Below are positions 4,936 to 58,963 of a DNA stretch of 64,000 nt, piece after piece. Location of the stretch: the NCBI RefSeq assembly GCF_056712565.1, contig NZ_JBWXXM010000004.1; one strand, written 5' to 3'. Positions within the stretch are counted from its first letter, which is position 1. Each line of letters begins with the position of its first letter. Below the pieces are notes generated by a model, which saw only the letters and a list, made by a program, of their open reading frames with translations, searched no databases and was not told the DNA's origin. Both the position numbers and the translations under genes were made by a program. This stretch comes from a plasmid.

Positions 4936-5043
4936 GATCCCATTTCAGGCCAGTAATGACGCGGCTTACAGCGATCCGGGATCTTCTTTGGATCTTCCTA
5001 GGTTCTCTTTAGGATCTGTTTATTGGATCTATGCTGTGGATAA
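4936..5043. promoter_or_regulatory. origin-associated GATC cluster (6 Dam sites) and DnaA box
   Basis: GATC at 4936, 4973, 4980, 4991, 5013, 5026; TGTGGATAAG at 5035-5044 is the reverse complement of DnaA box TTATCCACA. Confidence 0.65.
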
Positions 5044-5086
5044 GTTGAATAAACCGGCCAACAAAGCCGGTTGGAAGGAAGTCATA

Positions 5087-5479
5087 TTATTCTACGCTTT
5101 CGATAAGAAGACCATGTTCATAACATTTAAGCTCATCGCCTTCATACAGGAATTGGTATCCAATACCACCATTTTCATGGACATTAGGGAATAACTCATA
5201 ACTCACTGAAGAGCAAATCACACCAATGCAGCGATCAACGCCTTCTCGTTCTTCAGTGCTGAAAAAATCCTCTTCGGTAAGAACATGAGTACATTGCTCA
5301 TCAGCATAGGTCGGAAATACATGCTCGATGCAATCCGGGTGTTTTAAACCAAGCTGATCGGCAAGCTCGAAAGCATGACGGTATTGTTCAGATCCTGGCT
5401 TGCCAACAGTGATGTGCTCAATTTTGTAGATTGAAGTCGCTTTGTTGATAGTTTGCTTTACTGTTACTTTATCAGACAT
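5087..5479 (-). CDS. hypothetical protein (upfA-like position)
   Basis: 130-aa ORF upstream of repA origin in same orientation as neighbours. Confidence 0.5.
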   Translation of the reverse strand: MSDKVTVKQTINKATSIYKIEHITVGKPGSEQYRHAFELADQLGLKHPDCIEHVFPTYADEQCTHVLTEEDFFSTEEREGVDRCIGVICSSVSYELFPNVHENGGIGYQFLYEGDELKCYEHGLLIESVE

Positions 5480-5490
5480 AAAAATCCCTT

Positions 5491-5742
5491 TTAGTTACCG
5501 CTGATAGCGCGGTTGTAATCATTAACGTTGCGATTCTTCCTGTTAATCCCCATCAGCATCGTTTCTGTATCGAGGATATACGCTGGCAGATCATCAAAAT
5601 ATTCACTGCTAAACTCTGGCATTCTGCACATAAATGCACTTTTGGGGGCAGGGTGGTTAACCTTTGTCGGCGTCGGCGTTAAATTCGCTGATCGACTCCC
5701 GGAGCAACCGCTGAGTGTCAGCAGGAATGCGCTGGCGAACAT
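5491..5742 (-). CDS. lipoprotein, o-spanin-like (Rz1-like)
   Basis: Signal peptide MFASAFLLTLSGC with lipobox, Pro-rich mature part; overlaps 3-prime end of the upstream coiled-coil membrane ORF in another frame. Confidence 0.5.
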   Translation of the reverse strand: MFASAFLLTLSGCSGSRSANLTPTPTKVNHPAPKSAFMCRMPEFSSEYFDDLPAYILDTETMLMGINRKNRNVNDYNRAISGN

Positions 5743-6079
5743 TACCCGCCGCAACCAGTTGTTTCTGAACTTCAGCTTTTCGTTCCATTTGCCTGTCAGC
5801 ATATTTGGCTTGTTCTGATTCATTTTTCACTTCCTGGCTGTGAAAATGTTGCTCTGCTTTGTTCATCGTCTCAATGGTCTGGTTAAGATCCATTATTGAC
5901 TTATCACGTTCCTTAACAGCCTGATCAAGACTGCCAATTTTCTCCATGGCTTGCTTTAGCTGATGACGTTCCCATGCAAACCCAGCACCAACAAGTGCGC
6001 AAATCAGAACAAGAACACCAGTAGCAGCAAGTTTCTCCTTCAAAGACAAAGCTGTTTTTAACGTAGAAAAGAATGACAT
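5657..6079 (-). CDS. i-spanin-like (Rz-like) membrane coiled-coil protein
   Basis: N-terminal TM segment GVLVLICALVGAGFAW then coiled-coil; AGGAGG RBS before ATG at 6079; overlapped by lipoprotein ORF. Confidence 0.5.
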   Translation of the reverse strand: MSFFSTLKTALSLKEKLAATGVLVLICALVGAGFAWERHQLKQAMEKIGSLDQAVKERDKSIMDLNQTIETMNKAEQHFHSQEVKNESEQAKYADRQMERKAEVQKQLVAAGNVRQRIPADTQRLLRESISEFNADADKG

Positions 6080-6118
6080 GTCTTCCTCCTGAAGAAAAAT
6101 TATCAATGAAGTCCTTTG

Positions 6119-6904
6119 TTACTGTGCCGCTTTGTTTAATTCATCAAGAACAGAATCAGGAACCAAAGCGGCAACTGCGCTGGCTGTGCTGGCCTTATTT
6201 GCTGATGCTTCCGCAAGCGCGGTACCGATAGCATGGTTATAAGCAGTTATGGCTACGTTGGCGCTTTCATTCGCTCGTTCATACTGCTGTTGTAACGCAG
6301 TTGTGGGCGCTGTTGTCTGGTTGAAAACAACCCCAAACTGTTCAGTTGCTACTTTCAGAGATTCAATTTGCTCTTCTGTTAGTGCTGGTGGGGGAGTGGC
6401 AGTGCCGCCGCCTGAACCAGAGCCTGACGAGCTTCCTGAGCCAGTGTTAAGGGTCTGGTTAATCTCCCCCATTGCAGCGACTAAACTTGATGTATTAAGC
6501 GCGTTAACAGCGTCCTCAAGCGATTTAGTAATATTCACATCACCAATGGCAATAGAGATCGGCAGTTCTGAAACTTCTCGCTCATTAGCACGGCAGTAAA
6601 CATCCCAACCAATATCGAGTTGAAGCAGCATTGACAGATCTGCATAACCAGCCAACAGGTCCGCGTGCTTAGTTGCCAGTTCTCCAATGTTCGTTAAGCC
6701 GGTTGTGGTTGTTCTGATCGTTGAAACATAGCTGGTAATAGTGTCGGGATAGACAATTGTATCCAGAATTAATCCGGTCAATTCTTCTGCAAGCAGTTTT
6801 GCTGTGTTAGCACTGTTTCGTGCCGATGTTATGGCACCAGGTGTTTTCATCCCACCGGCGGCGGCCAATTTTTTATATGCGGATAACTGGTAGTCTTTTT
6901 CCAG
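6119..6904 (-). CDS. hypothetical protein with Gly/Ser-rich linker
   Basis: 262-aa ORF from ATG at 6904 (RBS GGAGAT); GSGSSSGSGSGGG linker. Confidence 0.55.
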   Translation of the reverse strand: MEKDYQLSAYKKLAAAGGMKTPGAITSARNSANTAKLLAEELTGLILDTIVYPDTITSYVSTIRTTTTGLTNIGELATKHADLLAGYADLSMLLQLDIGWDVYCRANEREVSELPISIAIGDVNITKSLEDAVNALNTSSLVAAMGEINQTLNTGSGSSSGSGSGGGTATPPPALTEEQIESLKVATEQFGVVFNQTTAPTTALQQQYERANESANVAITAYNHAIGTALAEASANKASTASAVAALVPDSVLDELNKAAQ

Positions 6905-6915
6905 CATGATATCTC

Positions 6916-7200
6916 CTAACTTACCTGAACCAGGCCGTCTCCGGACGCTACGGTAGATCCGCATGAAACAGGGTCACCAACGCATACGATCCCTTTACCA
7001 TTGACGGTAAACCATGCCCTGGTTGATATAGCTTGCCCACCGTGCGTACTGTTTCCATCGGTATGCTGTGCATATTGCTTACCATCAACTAACACTTCGA
7101 CTCCGTTGACTTTAAGTAGTGGTTCACTCTCTACAGGAGGCCTGGATGGGAATCCTCCGTGCCCCGAACAAATGCTGTCTTTTGTTGCAATACTTGCCAC
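6916..7200 (-). CDS. PAAR-like small protein
   Basis: 94-aa ORF with HGG and GDPVSCG motifs reminiscent of PAAR spike-tip domains. Confidence 0.4.
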   Translation of the reverse strand: MASIATKDSICSGHGGFPSRPPVESEPLLKVNGVEVLVDGKQYAQHTDGNSTHGGQAISTRAWFTVNGKGIVCVGDPVSCGSTVASGDGLVQVS

Positions 7201-7281
7201 GCCATCACCAATTATTTGCTCTGATTTTCGTTATTTTAACTTAGGTTATTTGTGGTCTGTATGGCGTTTACTTATTACAAA

Positions 7282-58027: not shown

Positions 58028-58282
58028 TTATCGCCTTCGTCTGCGTGCCATATATTTTCGCACCGCGCGACGTGGGCAATCTGAAGCGGTTTCTTTCTGC
58101 TGCATCAATCTTGCAGCCATGCTCAAAAATGTCAGGCACAGCCGAAGCCCGGCATATAATAGCGGTTCCAGTGGCCACGTCTCATTGATCACATATACCG
58201 CCATGAAAATCGAGTCGAAAACTATCGCCGCCAGCGATAACTTCATTGTCGAAAGTCGGCGGAGCTGCCGGAGTTTATTCAT
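58028..58282 (-). CDS. small membrane protein downstream of lyz (holin/pinholin candidate)
   Basis: 84-aa ORF (or 72 aa from 58246) with two hydrophobic segments; overlaps the lyz stop. Confidence 0.3.
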   Translation of the reverse strand: MNKLRQLRRLSTMKLSLAAIVFDSIFMAVYVINETWPLEPLLYAGLRLCLTFLSMAARLMQQKETASDCPRRAVRKYMARRRRR

Positions 58283-58832
58283 TGACCAGTCCCGTCAGGC
58301 AAAGCTGACGTTCTTTTTCACGGCGAATCTTTAAGCCTCGCAGTGGCACGCCGTTACTGTTCACGAAATCAGGGAGATGGTTACACATATTCACCCATTC
58401 CCCTTTCTGCGCCCACTTGTGGATGGACGTTTCTACTCGCATGCCTCGCGCTTTGCTGTAGTAGGTCCGTAAACTATTGCATCCCATATTGAATGCCGCG
58501 CTTGTCATTGCACTGAAGGCATTATCGGGCATGTCTTTGCCCCGGAAGTGCTGATTAATACAGCGTTCAGCGATCAGGATATTCTTTTCCCAATCAGCGG
58601 CGATTTGCTGGTCGGTTTTTCGCACGCCTGGCGTTACCCCGTGTGTATTACCAATCCCGTCAGTCCATACACCCGCCGGGCACATGTATGGGTCACGTCG
58701 GCAACCTTCAGCGTTTCCGATAAGCTCAAGCCCCGCCTGGTTGGTTCGCACATTGCCATTACCCATCACGATGGTAATCATCACCGCGATAGCGCAAATT
58801 GCACCGCCTCCTGCGGCTGTTTTTCCCTTCAT
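58275..58832 (-). CDS. lyz: SAR endolysin (lysozyme with signal-arrest-release domain)
   Basis: 185 aa from MKGKTAAGGGAICAIAVMITIVMG; Gly/Ala-rich SAR segment then T4-lysozyme-like catalytic region. Confidence 0.9.
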   Translation of the reverse strand: MKGKTAAGGGAICAIAVMITIVMGNGNVRTNQAGLELIGNAEGCRRDPYMCPAGVWTDGIGNTHGVTPGVRKTDQQIAADWEKNILIAERCINQHFRGKDMPDNAFSAMTSAAFNMGCNSLRTYYSKARGMRVETSIHKWAQKGEWVNMCNHLPDFVNSNGVPLRGLKIRREKERQLCLTGLVNE

Positions 58833-58963
58833 AAAGACCTCATAAGCGAATTTTTTACGCTCCAGGACAACACCCATTCACAGCCAATACCGACTGACTC
58901 GATCCCTTTAGAAGGCACAGGATAATGCAAATCACTTGTTAGCTACGTTTCAAAGATATACAT

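Follow-up and report, generated by a model that had tools for sequence, protein, structure and literature searches.

In phage P2, the spanin genes lysB and lysC adjoin the holin and endolysin genes in a lysis cassette. In phage lambda, the spanin subunits Rz and Rz1 bind by their distal ends and span the periplasm, and once the peptidoglycan meshwork is removed, the complex disrupts or fuses both membranes (PMC6139136). A homotypic disulfide is apparently needed by nearly all two-component spanins (PMC6139136), and at least one periplasmic Cys is present in 507 of 528 two-component pairs (Kongari et al. 2018). For phage P1, Bednarek et al. 2022 (PMC9025707) credit Summer et al. 2007 with recognising the gene pair ppfA and mlp as the equivalents of Rz/Rz1. 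Table S1 of Kongari et al. 2018 classifies the pair from P1 and P7 as 'ovl' (overlapped) in the family 'P1', with gp064/Upf62.7 as the i-spanin and gp063/Upf62.4 as the o-spanin, at the same start sites as those used here. According to PMC9025707, the two genes partially overlap and form an operon that lies apart from the rest of the lysis genes, and their assignment as spanins rests on predicted features; the i- and o-spanin labels of ppfA and mlp are swapped in that paper.

Current annotations of the pair are uneven. RefSeq calls mlp 'Rz-like spanin' and several GenBank records use the names Rz/Rz1. In some GenBank records (e.g., MH422554), 'Rz1' is a 46-aa ORF that begins at the internal Met65 (positions 5491-5631 of the stretch analysed here), and calls of this type omit the signal peptide and the lipobox; other records leave both genes hypothetical.

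We analysed a plasmid stretch of 64 kb, hereafter the window, which judging by its sequence is a P1-like phage-plasmid. Positions 5000-6600 share 95-99% DNA identity with P1, P7, SJ46, RCS47 and further Punavirus records. A reading of the window made from the letters only (the sequence-only reading) had proposed an overlapped pair of spanin-like genes at 5491-6079, and this pair is, by its sequence, P1 ppfA/mlp, matching to the base. Position 5491 is the end of the mlp stop codon and position 6079 is the start of the ppfA ATG, with both genes on the minus strand. The locus, start sites, overlap and flanking genes are the same as for ppfA (gp064, Upf62.7) and mlp (gp063, Upf62.4) of P1 and P7. 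PpfA is 99-100% identical to P1 PpfA (99.3% to the P1 reference) and Mlp is 97-100% identical to P1 Mlp (98.2% to the P1 reference); the differences from P1, namely I45M in PpfA and S7N and V32A in Mlp, are not structural. The features of the pair are as follows.

5657..6079, minus strand (reads 6079..5657): ppfA, predicted i-spanin of 140 aa (ORF, translation, P1 identity)
6085..6090, minus strand: ppfA Shine-Dalgarno AGGAGG, 5 nt ahead of the ATG (sequence)
5975..6031, minus strand: predicted single transmembrane helix of PpfA, LAATGVLVLICALVGAGFA, codons 17-35 (hydropathy)
5491..5823, minus strand (reads 5823..5491): mlp, predicted o-spanin, 110-aa precursor (ORF, PHROGs, hhalign, dN/dS)
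5830..5835, minus strand: mlp Shine-Dalgarno AGGAAG, 6 nt ahead of the ATG, inside the ppfA codons for Q-E-V-K (sequence)
5704..5715, minus strand: lipobox LSGC, Mlp residues 37-40, with the Cys40 codon at 5706..5704 (regex match)
5626..5628, minus strand: Cys66 codon of mlp, the only periplasmic Cys of the pair (invariant in five lineages)
5657..5823, minus strand: dual-coding overlap of 167 nt, ppfA codons 86-140 plus stop and mlp codons 1-55/56 (sequence)

We conclude that ppfA and mlp probably encode the two subunits of a P1-type two-component spanin. The proposal that a spanin function can be assigned to these ORFs is supported as a prediction by their anatomy, the selection acting on them, their similarity to P2 LysB/LysC and the published assignment. 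This assignment dates back to 2007 in the spanin literature and is also carried by RefSeq today, so that it is already known, and the observation is a rediscovery with little discovery value. Its practical value is a confirmation of the mlp and ppfA coordinates and start sites for annotation, to which the present analysis adds comparative evidence for translation of the overlapped frame.

The architecture of PpfA is that of an i-spanin, i.e., a type-II membrane protein with one N-terminal helix and a mostly helical or coiled-coil periplasmic domain. A short N-terminus, predicted to be cytoplasmic, is followed by a membrane helix at about residues 17-35 and a predicted helical periplasmic domain. 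Residues 17-35 form the top-scoring 19-residue Kyte-Doolittle window (mean 2.35) and the sole strongly hydrophobic segment of the protein. The AlphaFold2 model, built from seven family members (mean pLDDT 75.7), has a helix at residues 3-110, a break at residues 111-119 (AAGNVRQRI) and a second helix at residues 120-137. In the segment of residues 45-72, seven of the eight heptad a/d positions are hydrophobic, which is equalled by 0.7% of shuffled sequences (p about 0.007). The membrane helix, the long modelled helices and this heptad segment together bear out the description of PpfA as a membrane coiled-coil protein. No periplasmic Cys is present in the PpfA sequence. The ppfA AGGAGG element is conserved in the 60%-identical relatives described below, and the table of Kongari et al. 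2018 gives an identical ribosome-binding site for P1 ppfA. The program-made ORF list instead starts ppfA at a TTG at position 6106; this start was rejected, as it has no ribosome-binding site ahead of it.

Mlp has the layout of a lipoprotein, with a long basic N-region, a hydrophobic core, a lipobox, a Pro/Thr/Ser tether, Cys66 and a C-terminal helix. The LSGC lipobox given in the sequence-only reading was recovered by a regex at residues 37-40, with Cys40 as the candidate lipidation site and Ser at position +2. Mlp therefore combines a signal peptidase II lipobox with a +2 residue that is not an inner-membrane retention signal, as expected of an o-spanin. The tether SGSRSANLTPTPTKVNHPAPK follows the lipobox, and the second Cys is at position 66. 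Mature Mlp comprises 71 residues including the Cys predicted to be lipidated. It contains six Pro residues, five of them within the first 35 residues, and the term 'Pro-rich' used for the mature part thus fits the N-terminal tether only; the rest of the protein does not deserve it, and the Pro content is far less than that of lambda Rz1. The presence of at least one periplasmic Cys in either subunit, typical of two-component spanins, is provided here by Mlp Cys66, the only candidate residue for a Mlp homodimer disulfide.

The predicted signal peptide of Mlp is unusually long (39 residues), and the table of Kongari et al. 2018 remarks on a 'too long signal sequence' in the P1 o-spanin. A possible alternative start lies 16 residues before Cys40 in all five lineages compared (TTG in two, ATG in three). 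In the window, this is mlp codon 24, a TTG at position 5754, and initiation there would produce a textbook 16-residue lipoprotein signal peptide. We found no good ribosome-binding site ahead of the codon-24 start, and the upstream ATG is preferred for this reason; a short form of Mlp made from the Cys-16 start would be the less likely alternative.

The two genes of a spanin pair are neighbours on the same strand and may be embedded, overlapped or separated; ppfA and mlp share 167 nt, which they read in frames offset by 1. We compared the locus with four diverged P1-like plasmid-phages, which together with the window represent five lineages. PpfA is about 60% identical in three of these relatives (clusters from Cronobacter sakazakii, Klebsiella aerogenes and Salmonella) and 33% identical in the fourth. 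The overlapping lipoprotein ORF is intact in all four relatives, encodes 109-110 aa and starts at the same position; the overlap ranges from 164 to 179 nt, and the layout is common to all. The mlp start in four divergent lineages is preceded by AGGAGG or AGGAAG located within ppfA codons. The lipobox of the relatives is LSAC, LNAC or LNGC, with Cys40 invariant in the five lineages, and their Mlp proteins share the C-terminal block DDLP.Y...L..INRKN.NVN.YNR.

The part of mlp that extends beyond ppfA (54 codons past the ppfA stop) has dN/dS of 0.05-0.13 and encodes sequences with 80-87% amino-acid identity at 73-86% nucleotide identity, which is direct evidence of selection on the lipoprotein frame. 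For ppfA, dN/dS is 0.08-0.49. Within the overlap, which covers the N-region of the Mlp signal peptide, the ppfA frame dominates and the mlp frame has dN/dS above 1, as expected where a tolerant signal peptide overlies a constrained helix. Nucleotide identity is 0.77-0.81 in the overlap versus 0.60-0.61 in the ppfA-only part.

These comparisons also bear on the reading in which the lipoprotein frame is open within and after ppfA merely by chance and is not translated. The elevated dN/dS of the mlp frame inside the overlap is in line with it, as is the behaviour of gene callers, which usually miss mlp or call just its 46-52-aa tail. However, a chance frame would not be expected to run for 54 codons past the ppfA stop under such constraint, nor to keep its ORF, start site, lipobox Cys and Cys66 down to 33% PpfA identity. 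Lipoprotein signals are, moreover, rare in the window: scanning all six frames of the 64 kb yielded three candidates, against an expectation of 1.07 from shuffled sequence. The only credible one among them is mlp, which overlies the 3' end of a gene for a type-II membrane protein. We consider the chance-frame reading to have a negligible probability and to be effectively refuted. Purifying selection, together with the conserved ORF, start, lipobox and Cys66, makes non-translation of the lipoprotein frame, named in the sequence-only reading as a result that would overturn it, very unlikely, and the comparative evidence makes it very likely that the frame is translated.

A separate observation is that public assemblies contain fusions of PpfA with Mlp, 195 aa in length (193 aa in one case), that result from frame switches within the overlap. 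The switches occur at no fewer than six different points of the overlap and are represented by about 80 member sequences versus more than 1,100 intact ones. One of the frameshifts is consistent with the loss of an A from the run of five A just before the mlp ATG. These frameshifts may be either assembly errors or mutations that have independently inactivated the genes in prophage-plasmids.

Profile comparisons point to P2 for both proteins. PpfA matches phrog_89, 'Rz-like spanin' (E=1.5e-25), whereas Mlp matches its own family phrog_30284, 'Rz-like spanin' (E=2.2e-77), and phrog_456, also 'Rz-like spanin' (E=4e-5). When known spanins were scanned against these profiles, phrog_89 proved to be the P2 LysB family (LysB match E=5.8e-61) and phrog_456 the P2 LysC family (LysC match E=1.7e-31), so that both partners point to one and the same overlapped spanin pair. 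Reciprocally, P2 LysC matches the Mlp family phrog_30284 at 5e-4. An hhalign comparison of the five-member Mlp alignment with P2 LysC gave a probability of 88% and E=2.9e-6, with 35% identity across 62 columns; the alignment includes the TPTP tether and the Cys of the C-x-MP motif, and Cys66 is paired with a Cys of LysC. Remote homology of Mlp to P2 LysC is likely on this evidence. For PpfA and P2 LysB, the hhalign match (E=0.049) is confined to the membrane helix and lends no support to homology; similarity of PpfA to LysB outside the PHROG profile is weak, and coiled-coil composition could contribute to it. Of the two predicted links to P2, that of the o-spanin is credible and that of the i-spanin is soft.

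Other searches delimit the family narrowly. Neither PpfA nor Mlp matched the Pfam spanin families at E<=0.1, and both scored below the thresholds of the NCBIfam families for P2 LysB (TIGR03495; PpfA 19 bits versus a cutoff of 92.75) and P2 LysC (NF038368; Mlp 14.3 bits versus a cutoff of 27). An exhaustive HMMER search for PpfA over 1.84 billion representatives returned only P1-like relatives, the rest being coiled-coil noise, and the most distant full-length relative found was 33% identical. Likewise, a profile search of 5.8 billion proteins with Mlp returned only P1-like elements, and in 50,697 phage records the tblastn matches were confined to Punavirus-type phages and Cronobacter phage JK004. 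Every relative found has the same synteny as the P1 locus.

Spanin genes usually, not obligatorily, lie in a lysis cassette; the ppfA/mlp pair adjoins no holin or endolysin gene. Two features of the endolysin region are relevant here.

58275..58832, minus strand (reads 58832..58275): lyz, SAR-type endolysin (translation, Phage_lysozyme E=2e-22, P1 annotation)
58919..58937, minus strand: late promoter LPlyz, AAGTGATTT-N4-TATCCT (P1 annotation, motif scan)

The N-terminus of Lyz is a hydrophobic SAR-type segment. The gene lies 52.2 kb from ppfA/mlp in the window, in agreement with the separation of about 52 kb noted earlier, and about 42 kb away by the short way round the circular genome, as computed from the P1 record coordinates. 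The same record gives 30.4-31.2 kb for lydA/lydB and 63.4-63.9 kb for mlp/ppfA. The view that the lysis functions are dispersed is correct and was already known (PMC9025707). The end of lyz is overlapped by lydD (58028-58282, minus strand), which encodes a membrane protein of 84 aa with five arginines at its C-terminus; LydD is the holin-like protein on which Bednarek et al. 2022 worked. In the six-frame scan of the 64-kb window, no other credible lipoprotein or spanin candidate was found besides the ppfA/mlp pair.

The pair belongs to a row of minus-strand genes, which in the P1 reference record is ordered upfC-upfB-ppfA-mlp-upfA and is followed by oriR, repA, incA, parA and parB. The remaining elements of the row in the window are as follows.

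6916..7200, minus strand: upfC, first gene in the row, encoding a PAAR-motif protein (Pfam, PHROGs, P1 record note)
6119..6964, minus strand: upfB, upstream neighbour of ppfA (ORF list, PHROGs, P1 record)
5087..5479, minus strand: upfA, downstream neighbour of mlp (ORF list, PHROGs, P1 record)
5058..5074, minus strand: terminator-like hairpin and T-run directly past upfA, before oriR/repA (consensus scan only)
7233..7251, minus strand: sub-threshold late-promoter match AAATAACCT-aagt-TAAAAT, 33 nt upstream of the upfC start (motif scan)

The sequence-only reading placed the pair in the plasmid-maintenance region. This holds by adjacency only; the pair is part of the upfC-upfA row, which is located immediately upstream of oriR/repA. 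The start of upfB is overlapped by upfC over 49 nt. T4 ORF 5.4 is the tip of the virion spike. The product of upfC matches phrog_281 (E=2e-30) and Pfam PAAR_motif (E=8.5e-6), the latter with 26.4 bits and thus slightly short of the cutoff of 27; the similarity of this product to T4 ORF 5.4 is noted in the P1 record. As the row starts with the PAAR-motif gene upfC, we argue that it belongs to the lytic phase and not to the plasmid-maintenance module. The hairpin at 5058-5074 could keep transcription of the upfC-upfA row from running into the plasmid origin.

To describe the promoters of this row, we used a late-promoter consensus, AAGTnACTT-N4-TAnnAT, built from five annotated P1 late promoters. 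The scan recovered LP23 and LPlyz in the window, whereas upstream of upfC or ppfA it found no match of the quality of a canonical Lpa-dependent late promoter, the best score there being 55 versus 63-71 for the five annotated ones. The match with this score, at 7233..7251, has two mismatches in the -22 box and is absent from the annotation of the P1 record. Elsewhere in the window, AAATGACTAGCGATAGAAT at 20827-20845 (minus strand) has a late-promoter score of 62, one point below the lowest annotated one (63). Near the row, the P1 record contains only predicted sigma-70 promoters, located inside upfB, and the P1 RNA-seq literature that we searched makes no mention of ppfA or mlp. In a genome-wide CRISPRi screen with P1vir, knockdown of mlp resulted in efficiencies of plating of 0.24 and 0.19 and that of ppfA in 1.3 and 1.2, and both genes were scored non-essential; in the same study, the values were 0.05/0.0035 for lyz and 5e-4/0.15 for lambda Rz, the latter being scored essential. 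The result for ppfA and mlp could reflect an incomplete knockdown, or spanins could be dispensable for plaques.

The location, promoters and knockdown data are the evidence on which two other readings of the pair would draw. In the first, PpfA and Mlp are real envelope proteins whose main role is not lysis, e.g., envelope modification or phage/plasmid exclusion by the prophage, with sigma-70 promoters next to the plasmid replicon driving the pair. The adjacency to oriR/repA, the restriction of promoters in the P1 record to predicted sigma-70-type ones with no strong late-promoter match, and the non-essentiality in CRISPRi plaque assays all favour such a role. However, it leaves unexplained the remote links of both partners to P2 LysB/LysC and the overlapped spanin layout, and the PAAR gene at the head of the row argues that the row is not a maintenance operon; furthermore, the window contains no other candidate for the spanin function. 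We regard a non-lysis role as unlikely.

In the second, the genes are a true spanin pair by descent that is redundant in P1 and matters only in some hosts or conditions, the outer membrane being disrupted, e.g., via shear, via the SAR endolysin pathway and another factor, or by an unrecognised disruptor. The contrast in the CRISPRi study, where lambda Rz is essential, is consistent with redundancy, and so are the several independent frameshift alleles in public assemblies and the extra holin-like genes of P1, which are said to adapt lysis to different hosts (PMC9025707). On the other hand, strong purifying selection acts on both proteins in lineages down to 33% identity, the knockdown may have been incomplete, and the frameshifts could sit in decaying prophages or be assembly errors. 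Redundancy of this kind seems less probable still.

The spanin assignment itself leaves room for a more specific proposal, namely that a P1-type spanin pair operates outside the Lpa late regulon and is dispensable for plaque formation, which we rate as rather unlikely, if somewhat less so than either of the above. P1 is a model phage, and its predicted spanins are unlinked to its other lysis genes, have no evident late promoter and were scored non-essential by CRISPRi. If true, P1 would have a spanin-independent way to breach the outer membrane, or ppfA/mlp would have another role; such a role would be specific to the host, the condition or the prophage state, beyond the lambda paradigm.

Under the preferred reading of ppfA and mlp as a two-component spanin, we infer a mechanism in all of its parts, from topology and lipidation to complex formation, disulfide bonding and membrane fusion. 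PpfA would sit in the inner membrane, its N-terminus facing the cytoplasm, and would extend a helical rod of about 100 residues, partly coiled-coil, into the periplasm. Mlp would be exported, cut by signal peptidase II and lipidated on Cys40, and with Ser at position +2 the Lol system would deliver it to the outer membrane, into the inner leaflet. From there, the Pro/Thr/Ser tether would extend inward, and the conserved C-terminal helix of Mlp (residues 76-108) would likely be the part that the C-terminal end of PpfA touches, with two Mlp molecules probably joined by a disulfide through Cys66. An AlphaFold2 model of PpfA(37-140) fused by a linker to Mlp(41-110) has low confidence (mean pLDDT 64.9, pTM 0.40) and does not provide a contact read-out; in this model, the Mlp tether is disordered and residues 76-108 form the C-terminal helix. 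By analogy with lambda Rz/Rz1, the periplasm-spanning PpfA-Mlp complexes would be restrained by the intact cell wall. The holin system of LydA, LydC and LydD would then collapse the membrane potential, and degradation of the wall by Lyz would free the complexes, which would fuse or disrupt the inner and outer membranes and so complete lysis.

The likeness of the P1 pair to lambda Rz/Rz1 lies in the predicted topology of both subunits, the dual-frame coding, the candidate intermolecular disulfide and the presumed mechanism, whereas there is no detectable sequence similarity between Rz/Rz1 and PpfA/Mlp and no shared Pfam match. Moreover, lambda Rz1 is wholly embedded in Rz and has a mature length of 40 aa with much more Pro, in contrast to the 71 aa of mature Mlp. 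The gene arrangement is that of P2 lysB/lysC, where the o-spanin gene also starts within the i-spanin gene and extends past its end, and the protein sizes are similar to those of LysB and LysC (141 and 96 aa). Unlike lysB/lysC, the P1 pair is unlinked to the lysis cassette, and the numbers of periplasmic Cys residues in the table of Kongari et al. differ as well: two in LysB and four in LysC versus none in the P1 i-spanin and one in the o-spanin. Mlp and LysC share the lipobox, a TPTP-type tether, the C-x-MP motif and a C-terminal helical part. With regard to its C-terminal helix, as predicted by modelling, Mlp appears closer to T4 PseT.2 (PMC6139136) than to lambda Rz1.
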